Shown here: piece by piece, positions 5,745-30,251 of the stretch
Layout: each line of letters starts with the position of its first letter
Position numbering within the stretch: the first letter of the stretch is position 1
Origin: Escherichia coli
GTDB taxonomy: Bacteria; Pseudomonadota; Gammaproteobacteria; Enterobacterales; Enterobacteriaceae
Direction: 5' to 3' (one strand)
Length of the DNA: 34,477 nt
NCBI RefSeq assembly: GCF_003334815.1
Contig: NZ_QOWO01000039.1
Program-made: the position numbers and the translations under genes
The notes under the pieces: generated by a model
The model's database searches: none
The model's input: only the letters and a program-made list of their open reading frames with translations
What the model was told of the DNA's origin: nothing

Positions 5745-6088
5745 TAAATCTTCCCGCAGGCACAAAAATCTGGCTGGTTGCCGGTATCACCGATATGCGC
5801 AACGGCTTCAATGGCCTCGCCGCAAAGGTGCAGACCGCGCTGAAAGATGACCCGATGTCCGGCCACGTCTTCATCTTCCGGGGACGCAGCGGCAGTCAGG
5901 TAAAACTGCTCTGGTCCACCGGCGATGGTCTGTGCCTGCTGACAAAGCGACTAGAACGTGGTCGCTTCGCCTGGCCCTCAGCCCGCGATGGCAAAGTGTT
6001 CCTGACGCCGGCGCAACTGGCGATGCTGATGGAAGGTATCGACTGGCGACAGCCAAAGCGGTTACTGACATCCCTGACCATGTTGTAG
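5741..6088 (+). CDS. tnpB: IS66-family accessory protein OrfB (TnpB)
   Basis: 115-aa ORF translationally coupled to orfA; precedes the transposase gene. Confidence 0.8.
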   Translation: MINLPAGTKIWLVAGITDMRNGFNGLAAKVQTALKDDPMSGHVFIFRGRSGSQVKLLWSTGDGLCLLTKRLERGRFAWPSARDGKVFLTPAQLAMLMEGIDWRQPKRLLTSLTML

Positions 6089-6137
6089 CGCTCTTTATCC
6101 TGGTTGTCGCAGAATAAGCCTGGTAAAATACAGGCTT

Positions 6138-7672
6138 ATGAACGACACCTCTTCTGACGACATCCTTCTGCTGAAACAGCGCCTGGCCGAACAGGAAGCG
6201 TTGATCCACGCCCTGCAGGAAAAGCTGAGCAACCGGGAACGCGAAATAGACCATCTGCAGGCGCAACTGGATAAGCTGCGCCGGATGAACTTCGGCAGTC
6301 GTTCCGAAAAGGTATCCCGCGTATCGCGCAAATGGAAGCTGACCTGAACCTGCTGCAGCAGGAAAGCGATACGCTGACCGGCCGGGTGGATGACCCGGCA
6401 GTGCAGCGCCCGCTGCGTCAGACCCGCACCCGCAAACCGTTCCCTGAGTCACTCCCACGGGATGAGAAGCGGCTGCTGCCGACTGAGCCGTGTTGCCCGG
6501 AGTGCGGTGGTTCGCTGAGTTACCTGGGTGAGGATGCCGCCGAACAGCTGGAGCTGATGCGCAGCGCCTTCCGGGTTATCCGGACAGTCCGTGAAAAGCA
6601 TGCCTGCCGTCGGTGCGATCGCATCGTTCAGGCCCCGGCTCCTTCGCGCCCCATCGAACGGGGGATCGCCGGACCGGGGCTGCTGGCCCGAGTGCTGACC
6701 TCAAAGTATGCAGAGCACATACCGCTGTATCGCCAGTCGGAGATCTATGCCCGCCAGGGTGTAGTGTTGAGTCGTTCTGTACTGTCGGGCTGGGTGGATG
6801 CGTGTTGTCGTCTGCTGGCACCGCTGGATGAAGCCCTTCAGCACTATGTCCTGACCGACGGCAAACTCCATGCTGACGATATGCCTGTCCCGGTGCTGTT
6901 GCCGGGCAATAAGAAGACGAAGACCGGGCGCTTATGGACGTACGTTCGAGACGACCGCAACGCCGGATCAGCGCTGGCCCCCGCAGTGTGGTTCGCTTAC
7001 AGCCCGGACAGAAAAGGTATCCACCCTCAGACCCATCTTGCAGGCTTCAGTGGCGTACTGCAGGCTGATGCCTACGCCGGGTTCAACGAGCTCTACCGCG
7101 ACGGCCATATAAAGGAAGCCGCGTGCTGGGCCCATGCCCGCCGAAAAATCCACGATGTTCACGTCCGTACCCCGTCAGCCCTGACGGAGGAGGCGCTGAA
7201 ACGGATCGGCGAGCTGTATGCCATCGAGTCGGAGCTCAGAGGTAAAAGAGCAGAGGAACGGCAGGCAGTCCGGCACCAAAAAGTGCTGCCGCTGCTGGCG
7301 TCACTGGAGGGGTGGCTGCGGGAGAAACAGAAAACCCTCTCAAGGCACTCAGAACTGGCGAAGGCGTTCGGGTATGCGCTGAACCAGTGGCCGGCGCTGA
7401 CCCGCTATGCAGAAGATGGCTGGGTGGAGGTGGATAATAACATTGCCGAAAACGCCCTACGACTGGTCAGTCTGGGGAGAAAAAACTGGCTGTTCTTCGG
7501 CTCGGATCATGGTGGTGAGCGCGGTGCGTCACTGTACAGTCTTATCGGGACGTGCAAATTAAACGGCGTGGATCCGGAACGCTATCTGCATCATGTACTT
7601 GATGTCATCGCCGACTGGCCTGTGAACCGGGTGGGTGCTCTGCTCCCGTGGCGGGTTACTCTGCCTGCCTGA
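6138..7672 (+). pseudogene. tnpC: IS66-family transposase (TnpC) split by a frameshift near 6330-6347
   Basis: Track ORFs 6138..6347 (N-terminal coiled-coil/leucine-zipper-like segment) and 6332..7672 (zinc-finger-like CxxC...CxxC, catalytic core, C-terminal ...LLPWRVTLPA) overlap in different frames and together make one IS66-type transposase. Confidence 0.75.
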
Positions 7673-7713
7673 CCAGCTTCACTTCGTCAATACGGTTCTC
7701 ACTGCACGCTTAC

Positions 7714-8047
7714 GAAAAAATCCAGACTGGGCGAAGCGTTCAGCTATGTACTGAATCAGTGGGATGCCCTCTGTTATTACAGTGATGACGGTCTGGCGGA
7801 GGCGGATAATAATGCTGCGGAAAGAGCGCTTCGTGCAGTCTGTCTCGGAAAGAAAAACTTTATGTTCTTTGGCAGCGATCACGGCGGCGAGCGTGGAGCA
7901 CTGTTGTACGGGCTGATCGGCACCTGCCGTCTGAACGGTATCGATCCGGAAGCGTATCTGCGCCATATCCTGAGCGTACTGCCAGAATGGCCTTCCAACC
8001 GAGTTGATGAACTCCTGCCATGGAACGTAGTACTCACCAATAAATAA
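7714..8047 (+). pseudogene. Truncated IS66-family transposase, C-terminal ~110 codons only
   Basis: In-frame translation of 7714-8047 matches the C-terminal region of IS66 TnpC; there is no N-terminal part and no orfA/orfB upstream. Confidence 0.7.
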
Positions 8048-8270: not shown

Positions 8271-8554
8271 ACGCTAAAAATGATAATTTGTTCTACCTGA
8301 TTAATGCAACATGCCATAAGTTTACGGGAAAGGCTGACCACCTGATATTGTTGCAAAATACGAAAGTCGTCAAAATCGCGGTGGGGAGCTTGAGGCTGTA
8401 AGCTGAAAGCGTTTGTGAAAGCCCCGGGAGATTGTTCTATCAATCAACCAAGGGCTCTACTGTAATGCCTAGACAACATTATAGTAGCCCGCTGACGTCC
8501 TCCACGCCAGAGGGAGCTTGCTACGTACAGCTTGTCGTTACTCAGAAGTAATAA

Positions 8555-8625
8555 ATGTAAAAAAACCGACTGATGAGGTCGGTTTTCTTACTGTTCCGTT
8601 ACAGAGTTGGTGGCCCTGACTGGAG
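8555..8625. repeat. Repeat family copy B (partial: hairpin plus conserved downstream segment only)
   Basis: gtaaaaaaaccgactgatgaggtcggttttcttactgttccgttacagagttggtgg matches the terminator-proximal part of copies A and C; the small-ORF part is absent. Confidence 0.5.
8559..8589. terminator. Terminator-like hairpin in repeat copy B (A7-ccgac-tgatgag-gtcgg-TTTTCTT)
   Basis: Perfect 5-bp GC-rich stem with flanking A-run and T-rich run. Confidence 0.4.
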
Positions 8626-8745
8626 GAAATCTCTTTTCAGCTAACGTTCTTATAATAGTGTTCTGTTCATTTGATAACAACCACCCTTGTAATCCGCAGG
8701 TTAGCACTGTCTGGCGACACTTCTGTCGTGATGACGGTAACCAGA

Positions 8746-8892
8746 ACATGAGTCTTCCCGGTATAACAGGCATGGTGGGGCGGATTTGCAGAAACAACAG
8801 ATGTAAAAAAACCGACTGGTGAGGTCGGCTTTTTTACTGTTCCGCTACAGAGTTGGTTGCTCTGGGCGGGAAAAGACAGTCTGTATCTAACA
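8746..8892. repeat. Repeat family copy C (~145 bp) with a 24-codon ORF (8748-8822, MSLPGITGMVGRICRNNRCKKTDW) and a terminator-like hairpin
   Basis: Same unit as copy A; the small ORF shares its first 13 codons with copy A, then diverges through a 1-nt indel. Confidence 0.6.
8805..8835. terminator. Bidirectional intrinsic-terminator-like hairpin (A7-ccgac-tggtgag-gtcgg-c-T6) in repeat copy C
   Basis: Perfect stem with A-run and T-run on either side. Confidence 0.5.
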
Positions 8893-24031: not shown

Positions 24032-24375
24032 AGGTTGTAGTCCTTCCAGGGATCAATATTCCCCGGCAGCTTTTCATTCACCTTGTCCACGACCGCGTCG
24101 CAGACCTGGTTTTCCAGCTGCGACAGAATGTCGTCAAGGCTGGGGAACTGGGGGAGGTTTATGCTGATTTTTTTGATTCGTGACAGACAGGACTGCAGGG
24201 ATGAGGAAACATCGTTTTCACGTTGTGACCATGCATCCGCAGCTGCACGTGCTCGCTCATATCCTGTATTACTACCGGCCTGTGCCGCGCTACCCGCACG
24301 ACAGGTTGCAGCACTTGCCGTGGATGAAATCAGGATAAGGCCGAGCACGGCAACCAGAGACTTATGCATGTTCAT
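24028..24375 (-). CDS. Small secreted protein at the TraL position
   Basis: 115-aa ORF with signal peptide MNMHKSLVAVLGLILISSTASA; overlaps traM by 4 nt. Confidence 0.5.
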   Translation of the reverse strand: MNMHKSLVAVLGLILISSTASAATCRAGSAAQAGSNTGYERARAAADAWSQRENDVSSSLQSCLSRIKKISINLPQFPSLDDILSQLENQVCDAVVDKVNEKLPGNIDPWKDYNL

Positions 24376-24392
24376 ATGGCTTCCTTACCGGC

Positions 24393-27300
24393 TCATCGGC
24401 CGGGGCTGTGGGAGAGATCCTGATGCAGAGTTTTTTCCTGCCTGTCCTCCGGCTTTTGGCTGTTGGACCACTGCTGCCATGACTGCTCGAAGCCCAGGTT
24501 CCGGTACAACGCATCAGGTTGTTTTTCCGGCGTGTAGACAGCAGCAAAAAGCGGTTCTTCCCGGGTTTTCAGATGAAACTGCATAAGCTCCGGTGCAGGG
24601 CGATTCGTGCTGTCAGCATCGTGGTTTACCGCTTCACCATAACCTGCAAAGCGTAAACCTTTGTCGGTCAGCGCATTGATAACCAGCTGACTGTTGTCGG
24701 CTGATGGGGTGGCCAGTGCCGGATACAATGTGCCGTTCAGCCGGACCACACCCTGCAGATGTTCATCGGCACTCTGGACAAGTAGCAGGTTGAGTTCACG
24801 CGTATCCTTATCCACTGATCCCAGAACAGGTGTCAGCTTGTCAGGGGCTGCGCTGGTTATTTCTGTTACCTGATTTGCGTTCTGTGGCGCGGAGACCGGA
24901 TGTCGGTCTTCACCGATAAACAGATGTGAGCCGACGTTTTCTGGCATACGTAACGCTTTCATCTCTTCGGGCCACCCCTGGCTGATTTGCGCAGCCACTT
25001 TCATAAAGGTTTCGACCGGAATCGCCTGAATACGCTGACCTTTATCCGGATTATCATGTGATACCGAGATCCCGTTGGTAACTGACTCCATGGACCACTT
25101 ATTCCGGAAACGTGCTTTTTGCTCTCCCGGGAGGATGAATTGTTCGCGGTTCTGAAGTGTCAGTGTCACCACGTCACCTTTCTGATGGTTTTTGACCAGA
25201 CTTTCCAGTTGTTCCCCCCAGTAGAGTTTGCTGCCACTGCGGTTTTTAAGCTCAACAAAGAAACTCTCTCCTTTGCCGGGTGCATATTCAGCACGACCAA
25301 AATTGTGCAGTACGGCAGTCACGCTCTCTCCCGGGCGAAGTTTTCCTGGTGGTTCTTCGTCTGGTGCCACATCTGCCGTTTTGCCTGGTTCAGCCGGTGA
25401 TGGTGCAGAGGCGGTGCTGACGGTTGATGCTTCAGGGGCTACTGGGGACGCCGGGGATTGTGTGGCTTCTTTTTCCTGAACGGGGTCAGGGACAGCCGGT
25501 TGTTCTGGGGTATTCCGGTTAAGTTCCGGTGTTGGCTGATGGGTGACAACTGCATCCTTACTGACAGCCATTTCCTTGCGTAATTTTTCTAGTTCAGCCC
25601 GTTGATCTGGCAATTTCATCCGGACATCGATGTTGTGCTCGATAATCAACTGCATTGCTTTTTGCTTAAAGGCATCACTGCCCGTCAGCTCTATGACGCC
25701 CCCATAAAATTTGGTGGCCACAGCAAGTGCGGCCAGAACGCTGCGATCGTCATTGCTGGCACCGTTGACCATTTCCAGCCGGTTTACCCGGTCAATGAAG
25801 GCAGGTTTGCCATCCAGTTTGTACAGGACGGTTCTGTCTGCTCGTTTTTCCCAGTCAAGCTCTTTAAGAATTTCGTCCATGTTGAGCGATATCGGTGCAT
25901 CAGAACGTTCCGGGGCGTAGACAATACTGTCAGGTATCGGTGGAGTCGTCGTGGTTTCCGCTGAGGGCGTGGGATCACTGTTCTCATGCGCCTGTGAATC
26001 CGTTTTTTTACGCGTAAAAAGGCCACGCGCTTTGTCGAGAAACGATGAAGTATTATCAGAAGGTGATGTGCTCTGAACAGGTTGCTGCGGAGTGGGTTCA
26101 TCCCGGACAGCCGGTTCTATAGTGGCTGTTGTGGCCTGAAGTTCTGACTCATCTGCCTGAACGGGGCCTGTGTCCGGTTGCGACGGCATATCACTGTTTT
26201 CCTGCAGATGCTCAGGATTTTCATTGTTCATCAGCTCCTGATATGCGCTGTAGTCTTCGTATTCTTCAGGGCCATCTGACTCAGGAAGGAACGGCTCTGG
26301 CTGAAGGGGAATGTCTTCAGTTACATGGCTGACCGCCTCTTCCCGGGGAGTATCCGGGGATATTCCGGTGCTTTGTTTGTCATCAGGCTCCGTCATCACG
26401 GTCATTTCCTCTTTGACTGCATCAGGGGAAGGTGATGGTTCGGCTGATTCATTCATGGTTTCAGATGAGGGGCTGTCTTCAGGGGCGGCGGGGGCAGCAG
26501 CAGGGGCCGGTATTTCTGGTGAAGTGCCGGACTCCTGTTGTAACTCGTTTTTTTCCGGTTGTGACAGTTCGGCTTCAAATTCACGCCAGTCTTTATCTGT
26601 GGCCACAGAGACAACTTTTTCCGGAGGTTCCGCCGGATGAGCGGGTTCATCAGGGGCAGACGCCGTTGTACTTTCCGGGGATGCCGGTGATTCTGCAGGG
26701 GAGTCCTGAACTACAGAGCTTTCCGTTTGCGCCTGAACGTTATCAGGGTGCCGCTCATCTTTGCCGTTATTTTCAGTGGCGTGACTGGTAAATGACAGTG
26801 TTTCATCAGCAATGTTACTGCTGGAAGCAGTTGGTTGTTCCTGCTGCGTGGCGGACGGCAGAGAAGGTCCCTGGTCATGGCTGTGCCCTGTATCGGGTGA
26901 TGTTTCAGGATATTCTGTCGGAGTCATGGTTTTTTCCTCAGTGTGGACCGGTGTAAAAACGAGGTTGCCGATCACCAGTGCCTCCCGGATTTCCGGGGTG
27001 TTACTGTTGGGGGTGGAAACCCCGATATGTTCTAACTGGGCGTTGATGACATGCTGAAAAGCGGCCCGTCCCCGGCTGGCGTCCAGGTCATTGAAATCGG
27101 TCAGTCCCTGCGATTTTTCGGCATCGGTGAACGCAGGAAAGATGACCGATCCTCCTGTCAGTTCTGCGGCTTTTGTTGCACTGACGATACCTTTGTTAAC
27201 CTGGCGTGCATGATCGTTGTCGGCACAGAAGATAAAGGGGCTTTGCTTCCATTTTTGCCGGGCATCTTCGGCCACGGCAATCATGTTGCCCGCATCCACT

Positions 27301-28160
27301 GTCATCAGCACCGGAAGGCCGGTGGCTTCGTGCAGGGAGGCGGCAGTGGCATAGCCCTCGGCAAACAGCACCGGCTGGCCGTTGCGCGGTGTACCCAGCG
27401 CAAACCAGTTACCGGTTTTCTCGGAATCTTTCAGGATGCGGGCATCCTTCCCGCCGGTGACCGGAATGCGCTGATAGGAGCGTATTGCGCCGTTACGGTT
27501 GCGGAAAGGAATAACGAGCTCATTTTTGTCGTTTATTCGCACCCCCGGCGCAGCCTGAATGCCTTTCCGGGTCAGGTATTCATGTGCCGTGGCCTGCGGC
27601 CATTTGTTGACATAGCGGCGGGCATAAGCAGCCTGTCGGTTGTACTGTGCTTTCAGTTCCCGCTCAGCGTCCTCCCTGCGTTGCAGCGAATGCGCTTTCA
27701 GGTGAAGCCTTGCGCGGGGATCTGTCTGCTCTCCGCCGGAGAAGGTCCAGTTGACCGGCGAATCATCCGCGCTGCGATAATCCCTGTACCAGCCGGCAGG
27801 TCTGCCGTCCAGGAAGCCGCGATATGCGCCACTTTTTTGCCCGTTTTTGTCATCGGTGGTCGGAACCCGGTGGATTTTACCGTCCATGGCCGGCAGTTCT
27901 TTCAGAACCAGTCCGGCATTTTCCAGTACCTGGGCAAACTCGGTGACCGGATCACTGCCGTTCATGGAGACTTCCTGCGGTCGGGGCAGCCAGCGGTCCA
28001 GCATGGACAGGTCCGCCCCCGGGCGGGCAAACCAGAGTTTGTGCTCTTTATCCCAGAGGACGGGCGTGTGCCCGTTCATCGGGGGATGTGCTTTTTTGAG
28101 ATCTTCTATTTCATCTGCAGGCACGGCAAGCCAGGTGCGGTAGCGGGATACAGACGGCAT
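24393..28160 (-). CDS. sogL: Sog-like conjugative DNA primase (N-terminal primase/Toprim-like domain, long acidic P/E/S/T-rich linker, large C-terminal domain)
   Basis: Start set at the ATG at 28160 (aggag RBS), giving about 1255 aa; the track ORF extends to a GTG at 28196. About 350 aa of low-complexity acidic linker in the middle. Confidence 0.7.
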   Translation of the reverse strand: MPSVSRYRTWLAVPADEIEDLKKAHPPMNGHTPVLWDKEHKLWFARPGADLSMLDRWLPRPQEVSMNGSDPVTEFAQVLENAGLVLKELPAMDGKIHRVPTTDDKNGQKSGAYRGFLDGRPAGWYRDYRSADDSPVNWTFSGGEQTDPRARLHLKAHSLQRREDAERELKAQYNRQAAYARRYVNKWPQATAHEYLTRKGIQAAPGVRINDKNELVIPFRNRNGAIRSYQRIPVTGGKDARILKDSEKTGNWFALGTPRNGQPVLFAEGYATAASLHEATGLPVLMTVDAGNMIAVAEDARQKWKQSPFIFCADNDHARQVNKGIVSATKAAELTGGSVIFPAFTDAEKSQGLTDFNDLDASRGRAAFQHVINAQLEHIGVSTPNSNTPEIREALVIGNLVFTPVHTEEKTMTPTEYPETSPDTGHSHDQGPSLPSATQQEQPTASSSNIADETLSFTSHATENNGKDERHPDNVQAQTESSVVQDSPAESPASPESTTASAPDEPAHPAEPPEKVVSVATDKDWREFEAELSQPEKNELQQESGTSPEIPAPAAAPAAPEDSPSSETMNESAEPSPSPDAVKEEMTVMTEPDDKQSTGISPDTPREEAVSHVTEDIPLQPEPFLPESDGPEEYEDYSAYQELMNNENPEHLQENSDMPSQPDTGPVQADESELQATTATIEPAVRDEPTPQQPVQSTSPSDNTSSFLDKARGLFTRKKTDSQAHENSDPTPSAETTTTPPIPDSIVYAPERSDAPISLNMDEILKELDWEKRADRTVLYKLDGKPAFIDRVNRLEMVNGASNDDRSVLAALAVATKFYGGVIELTGSDAFKQKAMQLIIEHNIDVRMKLPDQRAELEKLRKEMAVSKDAVVTHQPTPELNRNTPEQPAVPDPVQEKEATQSPASPVAPEASTVSTASAPSPAEPGKTADVAPDEEPPGKLRPGESVTAVLHNFGRAEYAPGKGESFFVELKNRSGSKLYWGEQLESLVKNHQKGDVVTLTLQNREQFILPGEQKARFRNKWSMESVTNGISVSHDNPDKGQRIQAIPVETFMKVAAQISQGWPEEMKALRMPENVGSHLFIGEDRHPVSAPQNANQVTEITSAAPDKLTPVLGSVDKDTRELNLLLVQSADEHLQGVVRLNGTLYPALATPSADNSQLVINALTDKGLRFAGYGEAVNHDADSTNRPAPELMQFHLKTREEPLFAAVYTPEKQPDALYRNLGFEQSWQQWSNSQKPEDRQEKTLHQDLSHSPGR

Positions 28161-28185
28161 GAGTGCTTCTCCTGAAAAAAGACGG

Positions 28186-28215
28186 AAAAAAACCACCGCC
28201 GGAAGCCGGGGGTGG
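28186..28215 (-). terminator. Intrinsic terminator between nuc and sogL (GC-rich 9-10 bp stem, 4-nt loop, U7 tract on the minus strand)
   Basis: Minus-strand RNA ccacccccg-gcuu-ccggcggugg-uuuuuuu, read directly; ends about 25 nt upstream of the sogL start. Confidence 0.6.
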
Positions 28216-28249
28216 CTGGGGGGATAGAAAATCGGGGGAGAAATGTTTG

Positions 28250-28801
28250 TCAGGGTCTCCAGTCTGTACCCTTATTCCAGCGATCCTGCCAGTGTTCAAG
28301 ATATTGTGCGGCTACATCCGGCATATTCTTAAGCACAACGACATTCTCTGAATTCTTGCGTGCAGCAGCACGAGAGAAGTTATAGGAGCCGGTTTCAACC
28401 GTGTTTCCGTCAACAATGATGACTTTGTCGTGATGGATGGGGAAGGCATCTACAGTCCGGAGAGGAATGTCCAGCAGGTTGATATATTTCATCGCTTCCT
28501 GACTTGCCCGGTTCGTATTCCCCTTGTCATCAACAACAATACGGACGTCCACTCCGCGTTTTTTCGCTTTTGCCAGCGCATGCATTACATCCGGGTCGGT
28601 GAAGGAATATGCCATCATCCTGATGGAGCTTTCCGCACTGTTGATTGTGTCAAGCACCAGAGCGGATGCGCTTCCTTCAGGAGAAAAGCCGACCTTCACG
28701 GATGGCGTGTCGATCATTGCAAACGATGGTGTCGTGAACAGTAACGGGCATGCCAGTAGCGATACCCGGAGCAGAGTAACGATAGTTTTTTTACCTGACA
28801 T
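28250..28801 (-). CDS. nuc: Phospholipase-D-superfamily endonuclease (Nuc-like), secreted
   Basis: HKD motif (IHHDKVIIVDGNTVETGSYNFS); signal peptide MSGKKTIVTLLRVSLLACPLLFTTPSFA from the internal ATG at 28801 (ggag RBS); the upstream part of track ORF 28250..29161 is judged non-coding. Confidence 0.75.
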   Translation of the reverse strand: MSGKKTIVTLLRVSLLACPLLFTTPSFAMIDTPSVKVGFSPEGSASALVLDTINSAESSIRMMAYSFTDPDVMHALAKAKKRGVDVRIVVDDKGNTNRASQEAMKYINLLDIPLRTVDAFPIHHDKVIIVDGNTVETGSYNFSRAAARKNSENVVVLKNMPDVAAQYLEHWQDRWNKGTDWRP

Positions 28802-28815
28802 AAAGACTCCAGAAT

Positions 28816-29106
28816 TTAATCGAGGCCAGTCCAGTCTCGTGGTGATTCCGTATGGTGGCGATACCACCATGGACGACCGGAGGCGATGGCCCCTCTCAGA
28901 ATGCTGTAAATGCGAGTACAGATCGTCCTGACAGTCCAGCCTGAACGGTCGAGAATAACGAAAAATAAAATGATGCCGGTGCAAATCCAGAAGGTTGTTT
29001 TGGAGGGAAAGGGGCATATAAACAGATAAATCATGGTGAACGGCAGAGGTACGCCCTGGATGTTGACTGGCGGTGTTGCATATCGCCAGAAACCTTCTCT
29101 TTTCAT
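28816..29106 (-). CDS. Small membrane protein at the TraK position (IcmT-like?)
   Basis: 96-aa hydrophobic ORF whose ATG overlaps the traJ stop (ATGA coupling). Confidence 0.5.
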   Translation of the reverse strand: MKREGFWRYATPPVNIQGVPLPFTMIYLFICPFPSKTTFWICTGIILFFVILDRSGWTVRTICTRIYSILRGAIASGRPWWYRHHTESPRDWTGLD

Positions 29107-30251
29107 GACCGTAACTCCCCTGGCGGGATAAAAAGAATCGCTTCTCTTCGGTCAACTTCATTCCGGATATACATTTCCAGAATCTGGTCCCGGATACGGC
29201 GCTTCTCCTGCCGGATTATGGCATCAATGTGATGCCCCCACTCTGCATGTGGCATTCCGGAAAGATTGTCGCGAAGCTCATCGTTAATGACGATATATTC
29301 CCGGACGGCTTTACGACCACCGTCATTTGTTCTGACCAGAACCTGAACCAGAATGAACTGCAACAGTGACAGGACAGCCCAGGCCATCGAATCCCTGATG
29401 ACAGGGGGAAACAGCCCAAGAAGACGTGCCAGCGTTTCACCAGGAGATTTCGTATGCATGGTGCTCAGGCAGTAATGTCCGGTGTTGCCTGCCTGTACCG
29501 CTGCGTCGGCGGTTTCGTTATCCCTGATCTCACCAACACCGATAATTTCGGGATTACGTCGTACAGCAGAACGCAGTCCGGCAGCAAAACTGACCACATC
29601 ACGCCCGATTTCTGCCTGATGCGGTGGGAGCAGATCGTTTTCATTTCCCAGGATATATTCCACCGGGTCTTCATATGTCACGATTTTGGCGTCGGGGAAA
29701 TTGTCCATAATGTAACGGTACAGTGCTGAACACAGCGTTGATTTTCCTGACCCGGTTTCACCACATACAAATCCCAGACCGCTTTTGCAGACCATTGCTT
29801 CAAGCAGGTCTGGTTCAATGTTCATGGAGAGAATGTCCGGTATTTCTGTCGGGATGACACGCATGGTTATTGAGATTGCTTTCTCCTCCGCACCAGATGT
29901 GCCCTGAATGAGGTGAGAGCGTAACCGGATGCGTTCTCCGCGTTTAAGACCATAGCGCCCGGATGCATCCCCGTTAATCTGTATCGTCCTGTCAACCGGA
30001 TTGCCTGCCAGAACGCGGGGAATGACTTCCCGACCGAACAGTTCATCAATCAGGGAGGACATGAGTGTGGTTGGTAACGTTGCACTGGAACAACGCACCC
30101 GTCGGCCAAAGCGACTGACAGATACAGGTGACCCGCCGGTCAGATCCACATCACTGACTTTATGTGCGGCACACCAGACAAAGAAATGCCGTAGTTCATC
30201 TGCAGTGAAACGCTGAAACGGAAAAAGACCAAACTCATCAGGAATATTCAT
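29103..30251 (-). CDS. traJ: DotB/PilT-family secretion ATPase (TraJ-type)
   Basis: 382-aa ORF with Walker A GETGSGKST and downstream acidic/His-box-like motifs typical of PilT/VirB11-like ATPases. Confidence 0.75.
   Translation of the reverse strand: MNIPDEFGLFPFQRFTADELRHFFVWCAAHKVSDVDLTGGSPVSVSRFGRRVRCSSATLPTTLMSSLIDELFGREVIPRVLAGNPVDRTIQINGDASGRYGLKRGERIRLRSHLIQGTSGAEEKAISITMRVIPTEIPDILSMNIEPDLLEAMVCKSGLGFVCGETGSGKSTLCSALYRYIMDNFPDAKIVTYEDPVEYILGNENDLLPPHQAEIGRDVVSFAAGLRSAVRRNPEIIGVGEIRDNETADAAVQAGNTGHYCLSTMHTKSPGETLARLLGLFPPVIRDSMAWAVLSLLQFILVQVLVRTNDGGRKAVREYIVINDELRDNLSGMPHAEWGHHIDAIIRQEKRRIRDQILEMYIRNEVDRREAILFIPPGELRS

Follow-up and report, generated by a model that had tools for sequence, protein, structure and literature searches.

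IncI1 plasmids are major carriers of extended-spectrum beta-lactamase (ESBL) genes and other resistance genes, and Sog belongs to the small number of natural proteins known to be substrates of a conjugative type IV system. The sog gene, its two products and the transfer of these products are already established for the plasmids R64 and ColIb-P9. It is known that sog encodes SogL of 1255 amino acids (aa) and SogS of 844 aa, and that the latter is made by in-frame translational reinitiation (PMC6112013). Hundreds of copies of Sog reach the recipient, and their delivery does not depend on DNA (PMC8406263). In the plasmid pESBL, SogS was annotated from its identity with R64, and the annotation takes in the final 844 codons, the stop codon being one of them (PMC4288162). 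In this study, we analyzed a stretch of 34,477 nucleotides (nt) of Escherichia coli DNA (contig NZ_QOWO01000039.1 of assembly GCF_003334815.1), which is hereafter called the window and which carries a sog gene on its minus strand. The sequence of this gene is identical to that of deposited plasmids.

A preliminary description of the window had pointed to a long acidic linker in a Sog-like primase, to a second and shorter linker, and to the first linker as the place where an internal start would be expected and where size variation could arise. From the results obtained here, we think it highly probable that the overall picture is a disordered linker with a nested internal start, in which the linker serves as a flexible tether.

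The sog gene and the internal start of SogS

The mechanically called open reading frame (ORF) occupies 24393-28196 (minus strand) and has 1267 codons, and its upstream end is at GTG 28196. Hand-annotated records give the name sogL, place the start at the position equivalent to 28160 of the window, and obtain 1255 residues; the length in R64 is equal. Residue positions in this text are therefore those of SogL counted from ATG 28160, and the ORF numbering is 12 higher. The masses calculated for the two products are 138 kDa for SogL and 92 kDa for SogS.

Comparison of the ORFs of the window with the annotated plasmids LC567051, R64 and RCS85_pI gave the gene order traJ-traK-nuc-sog-traL-traM-traN. 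The EGYATA primase motif is present in the translation (as AEGYATA), and the protein is 95-100% identical to R64 Sog in every region, without gaps. Because of its position in the tra operon, this motif and the identity to R64 Sog, we identify the gene from its sequence as the primase gene sog of a plasmid of the IncI1 type. All of the features that define Sog at the sequence level (primase domain, tra location, R64 identity and internal start) appear in this copy. When sog was compared by megablast with 72,556 plasmids, it was matched in 1841 plasmid records, and the top match, at 100% DNA identity, was the plasmid RCS85_pI of E. coli ECOR 3 (NZ_LT985321.1). At least 80% of the gene was covered in 1318 plasmids; the plasmids that cover it are nearly all conjugative ones of the MOBP/MPF_I type from Escherichia, Salmonella and Shigella. 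The identity of the best match was at least 95% in 1331 records.

Then we examined the internal start. Only one in-frame ATG of the window, that at 26927, yields a product of 844 residues, and it is preceded at a distance of 7 nt by the Shine-Dalgarno (SD) sequence GAGGA. This ATG lies 17 codons into the interval 25865-26978, which the preliminary description had given for the long linker (linker 1 in Table 1), and thus at its front edge. The expectation of an in-frame internal start with a ribosome-binding site was borne out in that both elements exist, but the start is located at the very beginning of the linker and not within it. Because of this location, the entire linker is part of SogS, where it forms the N-terminal tail.

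The column of this ATG is kept in IncI1, IncI-gamma, R64, the homologue P0005, the Salmonella lineage of P0009, and IncK2/Z. In P0031 the column holds GTG, which is also a start codon. We also compared four distant sog homologues, whose identity is 32-38%. All four are located upstream of traL-DotI-DotH homologues, and three of them have traJ/IcmT homologues upstream. In each of the four, GAGGA or GGAGA followed by ATG is found at the boundary between the primase and the linker. In five of seven genes, namely that of the window and those of four other lineages, GAGGA is followed at 5-9 nt by an in-frame ATG at one place only, which in each case is the boundary, and the spacing there is 7 nt each time. 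In these genes, GAG accounts for only 31-64% of the Glu codons. That GAGGA-N7-ATG is found at the boundary alone in the five genes, and that GAG serves for only this part of the Glu codons, is good evidence from comparison for selection on the nucleotide signal of the SogS start itself. The conservation of GAGGA-N7-ATG across MPF_I primases to about 35% identity argues that the expression of two products would be a family-wide trait.

In the transposon data of pESBL, the SogS interval was scored 1.00 and called 'required for transfer', and SogL overall was scored 0.26 and non-essential (PMC4288162). These scores fit a C-terminal product that is expressed independently of the primase part, with insertions in the primase-only third being tolerated. 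A simple scan of 24300-28400 found no sigma-70-like site, where 1.9 were expected, and gives no support for a separate SogS transcript. A search of Rfam gave no match within sog.

Automatic annotation describes sog as 'LPD7 domain-containing protein' or 'DUF5710 domain-containing protein' and has no entry for SogS (24393-28160, minus strand; NZ_LT985321.1, NC_005014.1 and many others), and some plasmid records have no listed feature at all over sog. The nested SogS start can be re-annotated with confidence. We also observed that the synonymous divergence from R64 (L002 31574-35341) is uneven along the gene, being 0.18 in the primase, 0.06 in the linker, 0 in LPD7 and 0.03 in the C-terminal part, and that the IncI-gamma copy shows another, different pattern along the gene when it is compared with the sog of the window. 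The uneven synonymous divergence suggests that there are recombination breakpoints inside sog.

Composition, predicted disorder and domain context of the linkers

The interval 25865-26978 on the minus strand corresponds to residues 407-778 of the ORF, that is, to SogL 395-766. Its residues include 13.4% Pro, 12.9% Glu, 12.1% Ser and 9.9% Thr, so that these four residues (PEST) make up 48% of the interval. In the folded parts of the protein the value is 23.3%, and the binomial tail probability of the excess over it is 5e-26. Acidic residues number 76 and basic residues (Lys and Arg) 18, the isoelectric point (pI) is 4.05, and bulky hydrophobic residues amount to 16%, compared with 27-30% in the flanking domains. 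The acidic linker of about 350 residues that had been proposed is thus real in its composition. We refined its limits to 25896-26975, a shift of about 30 nt at the low end, and linker 1 defined in this way (about 360 residues) is 49% PEST and has a net charge of -58 and a pI of 4.05.

The prediction of disorder was positive. The FoldIndex value is -0.26 in linker 1 and +0.01 to +0.11 in the domains, and the sequence entropy is 3.83 bits as compared with 4.03-4.13 bits. The AlphaFold2 model, which was made from an alignment of 52 homologues and covers SogL 396-1255, has a predicted local distance difference test (pLDDT) value of 35-43 over SogL 396-755 except in two short helices. The linker is located where it had been placed, between the primase domain and the C-terminal part, with Toprim_3 before it and LPD7 after it in Pfam. 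Between these two families Pfam found nothing inside linker 1, the PHROGs search of linker 1 alone gave no match, and the homologues have no ordered, conserved domain in this region. Composition and modelling together confirm linker 1 as a predicted intrinsically disordered acidic linker between domains. In the one literature search on this point, whose matches were all unrelated, we found no published description of the Sog linker as disordered. Several ORFs on the plus strand and in other frames overlap linker 1, and we take them as by-products of its biased composition.

The domains and linkers are arranged as shown in Table 1. The PHROG DNA primase families match as far as residue 404 (E = 2e-59). 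Linker 2 separates LPD7 from the C-terminal module, which is rich in beta structure. It contains, among its 68 residues, 13 Pro, 11 Ala, 8 Glu, 7 Val, 7 Thr and 6 Ser, and its length is 64-89 residues in the I-complex. The second, shorter stretch rich in Pro, Ala and Ser that had been described is therefore also present, at SogL 869-936, and its FoldIndex and pLDDT values are those of a disordered segment.

AlphaFold models the C-terminal module with confidence as barrels rich in beta structure, the pLDDT values being mostly 84-96. The C-terminal region of about 300 residues matched no Pfam or NCBIfam family. Its best structural matches were mostly single-stranded DNA (ssDNA) binders with the oligonucleotide/oligosaccharide-binding (OB) fold (RPA70, POT1, SSB, PriB and LEF-3), every score being weak, and the assignment of this module as OB-like is no more than suggestive. 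A search by sequence for a solved structure of any relative of Sog gave no match at E <= 0.1. In the LPD7 region, NCBIfam gave a sub-threshold match, scoring 19.9 bits where the cut-off is 250, to the final 60 positions of the model for TraI/MobA(P) relaxases. Sog and these relaxases, both of which are translocated, might share a module of a C-terminal type. This match was the only one in the NCBIfam scan of Sog, and we do not rely on it.

Table 1. Positions of the features of sog in the window, with the basis of each assignment.
Feature	Position	Strand	Basis
sog coding sequence (SogL, 1255 aa + stop)	24393..28160	-	ATG 28160 is the annotated start in LC567051 and R64; AGGAG upstream
N-terminal primase module, SogL 1-395	26976..28160	-	Pfam and PHROG DNA primase families
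DUF5710	about 27984-28139	-	Pfam
Toprim_3	about 27066-27365	-	Pfam
EGYATA motif	27342-27359	-	translation
Linker 1, acidic, Pro/Glu/Ser/Thr-rich, predicted disordered, SogL 396-755	25896..26975	-	composition, FoldIndex, pLDDT, no family match, ratio of nonsynonymous to synonymous substitution rates (dN/dS)
SD GAGGA for SogS, 7 nt before ATG	26935..26939	-	sequence; anti-SD duplex -6.1 kcal/mol
Internal in-frame ATG, SogL codon 412, start of 844-aa SogS	26925..26927	-	matches published 844 aa; conserved column
Short predicted helix, SogL 522-532, DKDWREFEAEL	26565..26597	-	AlphaFold2 helix 127-137; 10-residue block with mean pLDDT 60
Imperfect direct repeat copy 1, CCCTCATCTGAAACCA, flanking the 504-nt in-frame deletion of P0004	26456..26471	-	sequence; junction in alignment
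Acidic-aromatic motif EEYEDYSAYQELMNNE, SogL 632-647	26220..26267	-	conserved in P0005 and P0009
Short predicted basic amphipathic helix, SogL 707-716, (S)FLDKARGLFT	26013..26042	-	AlphaFold2 helix 312-321; block with mean pLDDT 62
Imperfect direct repeat copy 2, CCCTCAGCGGAAACCA, 504 nt downstream of copy 1	25952..25967	-	sequence
LPD7 domain, SogL 756-868	25557..25895	-	Pfam PF18821, E = 7.6e-13; AlphaFold2 pLDDT 93-97 in core
Linker 2, Pro/Ala-rich, predicted disordered, SogL 869-936 (68 residues)	25353..25556	-	composition, FoldIndex -0.13, pLDDT below 50
C-terminal beta-rich module, OB-like barrels (suggestive), SogL 940-1255	24396..25343	-	AlphaFold

The two products can be considered from this layout as follows. 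SogL, starting from ATG 28160, would consist of the primase module, the linker of about 360 residues, LPD7, the linker of 68 residues and the OB-like C-terminal module. SogS, starting from ATG 26927 by way of GAGGA 26939-26935, would consist of the linker, LPD7 and the C-terminal module, without the primase. We infer from these features that the linker is most likely a flexible, soluble and non-folding tether. With such a tether, the primase could act at some distance from the module by which the protein is brought, on the transferred strand, into the recipient. The constraint on the linker would be one of composition and of a few short motifs, and not one of sequence or length.

Length variation, short motifs and alternative readings

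When 120 close homologues were compared, it was almost always linker 1 that made their proteins differ in length, and this linker has 201-497 residues in the I-complex. Its PEST content is constant at 43-51%, and its net negative charge scales with length. For the wider family, we used 58 entries that share the order of primase and LPD7 (the window included), which are representatives at 50% identity. The spacer between the two domains is 58-754 residues long in these entries and net acidic in nearly every case, and the longest spacers, which are less extreme in composition, may contain extra domains. Between the IncI1 and the IncK2/Z sog, DNA similarity is detectable in the domains only. The identity is 28% in the linker and 63-74% in the domains, and in BLASTP the two linkers align through compositional similarity only. 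The dN/dS value is 0.27-0.44 in linker 1 and 0.05-0.20 in the domains, the linker value being about 2-3 times the domain value; as estimated from these substitutions, selection on the linker is relaxed but still purifying.

The preliminary description had regarded the linker as a place where size variation could arise. This is right for differences between lineages, as the ranges given above show, but within IncI1 the length is almost invariant. At least 80% of the IncI1 linker is covered in 1327 of the 1352 plasmids that carry it; among the matches listed, nearly all are 1077-1080 nt long with 95-100% identity. The cluster of 1255-residue proteins at 90% identity has 10386 member sequences, and the deletion variants are singletons. 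The latter have lost 112 or 168 residues in frame and are found on contigs of 68 and 80 kb. The deletion of 504 nt in P0004 (1087 aa) equals 168 codons, which is the difference between 1255 and 1087 residues, and it is flanked by the two copies of an imperfect 16-nt direct repeat (CCCTCA..GAAACCA) that stand exactly 504 nt apart in the window. In the IncK2/Z linker (L004 5777-6626) there are degenerate repeats, namely three copies of 164 nt and four copies of 70 nt, and the I-complex proteins of 1150-1405 residues appear to owe their different lengths to the copy number of these repeats. Tandem Repeats Finder detected no repeat in the IncI1 linker, and a direct-repeat search of it gave three short two-copy matches only, all of chance size. 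Repeat-driven variation in length was rejected for this copy, since it has no tandem or dispersed repeats above chance.

Several short motifs were found in linker 1. The pattern [DE]Wxx[FYW]xx[DE] occurs in 4 of the 58 family spacers, where 0.1 would be expected. Clustered aromatic triplets are present in 16 of the 58, as compared with 3.8 +/- 1.6 (maximum 9) in shuffled sequences. The (S)FLDKARGLFT helix is present in every aligned I-complex lineage except two deletion variants. Aromatic clusters of this kind, which stand in an acidic context as in EEYEDYSAYQEL, recur in spacers that are otherwise unalignable (P0121, P0124, P0140, P0142, P0175 and others).

These observations should be weighed against other explanations, of which one concerns the start codon. 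GTG 26975 (SogL codon 396) has the strongest SD in this copy, GGGAGG at 5 nt upstream, with a value of -10.3 kcal/mol as compared with -6.1 kcal/mol for ATG 26927, and P0005 has the same arrangement of GTG and SD. This SD speaks against the start that we favor, and so do three other points: the SogS start of IncK2/Z has a weak SD only (GAGAAG, -2.7 kcal/mol), a Met lies within 45 residues of the primase end in 36 of the 58 family representatives, which is only a modest enrichment over the expected number of about 26, and the use of ATG 26927 in this plasmid is deduced from the literature on R64 and ColIb-P9. However, a start at GTG 26975 would give 860 residues and not the published 844. The SD of this GTG is reduced to GCGAGG (-5.9 kcal/mol) in R64 and IncI-gamma, the value at the codon-396 GTG of the IncK2/Z copies is -0.2 to -5.7 kcal/mol, and this GTG is missing entirely in the Salmonella lineage. 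Part of the SD in the window also pairs in a predicted local hairpin, though the RNA fold around the internal start was no different from shuffles and is not significant (z = -0.96). We thus think it quite unlikely that the shorter product starts at GTG 26975 instead of ATG 26927. It is still less likely that the linker is a hot spot of expansion and contraction, with a size that varies actively between closely related plasmids. The I-complex range of 201-497 residues, the IncK2/Z repeats whose copy number tracks protein length, and the single IncI1 variant with a 504-nt deletion between imperfect 16-nt direct repeats are in its favor, but the lack of repeats above chance in the IncI1 linker of the window, the uniform length of the matches listed together with a coverage of 80% or more in 1327 of 1352 plasmids, and the contrast between a cluster of 10386 members and singleton deletion variants are all opposed to it. 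An explanation to which we give almost no weight is that the region is a folded domain unrecognized by the profile libraries and AlphaFold. Absent matches are no proof of disorder, and two short helices are predicted. Nevertheless, the hydrophobic content of 16% and the FoldIndex of -0.26 do not fit a folded domain, homologues tolerate insertions and deletions of tens to hundreds of residues, and the linker identity is 28-33% where the flanking domains have 63-81%.

The explanation that competes most with a passive tether is that the acidic linker is an active module, which can coexist with a role as a tether. A passive tether leaves unexplained the conserved short motifs (the DKDWREFEAEL and SFLDKARGLF helices and the EEYEDYSAYQEL cluster), the dN/dS value well below 1 in the linker, and the near-invariant length in IncI1 (1327 of 1352 plasmids), and these points count against our reading. 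As an active module, the linker could imitate ssDNA as a polyanion and, by folding back onto the OB-like C-terminal module, gate the binding of this module to DNA, in the way of the acidic tails of bacterial SSB and phage T7 gp2.5, or it could be a string of short docking motifs for the type IVB coupling complex or for proteins of the recipient. In agreement with this, a net charge of -58 adjoins a module whose best structural matches, with weak scores, are OB-fold ssDNA binders; both of the short helices of raised pLDDT, which stand out from unstructured surroundings, coincide with conserved motifs; the acidic-aromatic clusters exceed shuffled sequences (16 of 58 spacers against 3.8 +/- 1.6); the dN/dS value of 0.27-0.44 indicates purifying selection, with a length nearly fixed across 1327 IncI1 plasmids; and SogS retains the entire linker. 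On the other hand, the motifs change in order and are partly lost between lineages, natural in-frame deletions of 112 and 168 residues take out two of them, and there are family members with spacers of only 58-90 residues. We therefore regard an active module as possible but clearly the less probable of the two. A more specific form of this idea, which we put forward as a doubtful speculation, is that the polyanionic head of 360 residues is, rather than a spacer, a working part of SogS as a translocated ssDNA-coating protein. Its motifs DWxxFxxEL, YEDYxAYQEL and SFLxKARGxF may block the OB-like surface until the transferred strand is met, or may dock on the type IVB coupling complex. If this were true, the conserved internal start would exist to make the tail-first form in excess over the primase form.

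Neighboring loci and comparison with known systems

Elsewhere in the window, Rfam detected a sok antitoxin RNA at 8384-8525 (plus strand) and two AgrB-type antisense RNAs at 8557-8644 and 8803-8890 (minus strand). The RNAs of 8384-8890 fit the type I toxin loci of the hok/sok-like and DinQ-like kinds annotated in R64. The G+C content of 6001-8000 is 57-60%, compared with about 45-53% elsewhere, and this part holds an ORF of 446 residues at 6332-7672 (plus strand); it may be an inserted cargo gene or a gene of a mobile element. At 28250-29161 (minus strand), the mechanically called ORF has 303 residues. This ORF probably overstates the gene, because related plasmids annotate there a phospholipase D-family nuclease (nuc) of 183 residues and, upstream, a separate traK of 96 residues.

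The results for sog contain no new biology, in that the literature already contains the gene with both of its products and its location, and a disordered acidic linker between domains is an ordinary feature. The sizes of the Sog products on gels are about 210 and 160 kDa. An acidic disordered segment that is common to both products would plausibly explain why these sizes are well above the calculated ones of 138 and 92 kDa.

Comparing this locus with SogL/SogS of R64 and ColIb-P9, we find the same gene, the same tra position, the same frames of 1255 and 844 aa and the same internal ATG with its SD, with a protein that is 95-100% identical to that of R64. The differences are allelic only; one of them concerns the upstream GTG at codon 396, whose SD is stronger in the window than in R64. 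In the Sog of IncK2/Z and of other members of the I-complex, the domain order, the synteny, the ATG/GTG column and an acidic PEST-rich spacer between primase and LPD7 are also the same. In contrast, the linker itself is essentially unrelated there (28% identity) and undetectable by a DNA search, with degenerate repeats, a length of 242-497 residues and a weaker SD.

The acidic segment of Sog can also be compared with that of the bacterial SSB and of gp2.5 of phage T7, which combine an OB-type ssDNA-binding module with an acidic, low-complexity disordered segment. Their tails are C-terminal and have tens to about 60 residues, whereas the Sog segment is N-terminal to its module and has about 360 residues, the OB assignment of the module being no more than suggestive. 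TraC1 and TraC2 of the IncP plasmid RP4 are likewise nested in-frame products. Like Sog, they are Toprim plasmid primases that are transferred to the recipient (PMC7213743; PMC5512222). However, RP4 TraC has the reversed domain order, with Toprim at the C-terminus, and has DUF1738 (PMC7213743), and its transfer system is of type IVA.

Pri of the IncM plasmid pCTX-M3 is a primase at the equivalent tra position of an MPF_I system. It is only 23-30% identical to SogL, and its gene could encode a full-length product of 1070 aa and a C-terminal product of 689 aa (PMC6112013). Deletion of pri nearly abolished the transfer of pCTX-M3, and deletion of sog in R64 cut transfer about tenfold (PMC6112013).

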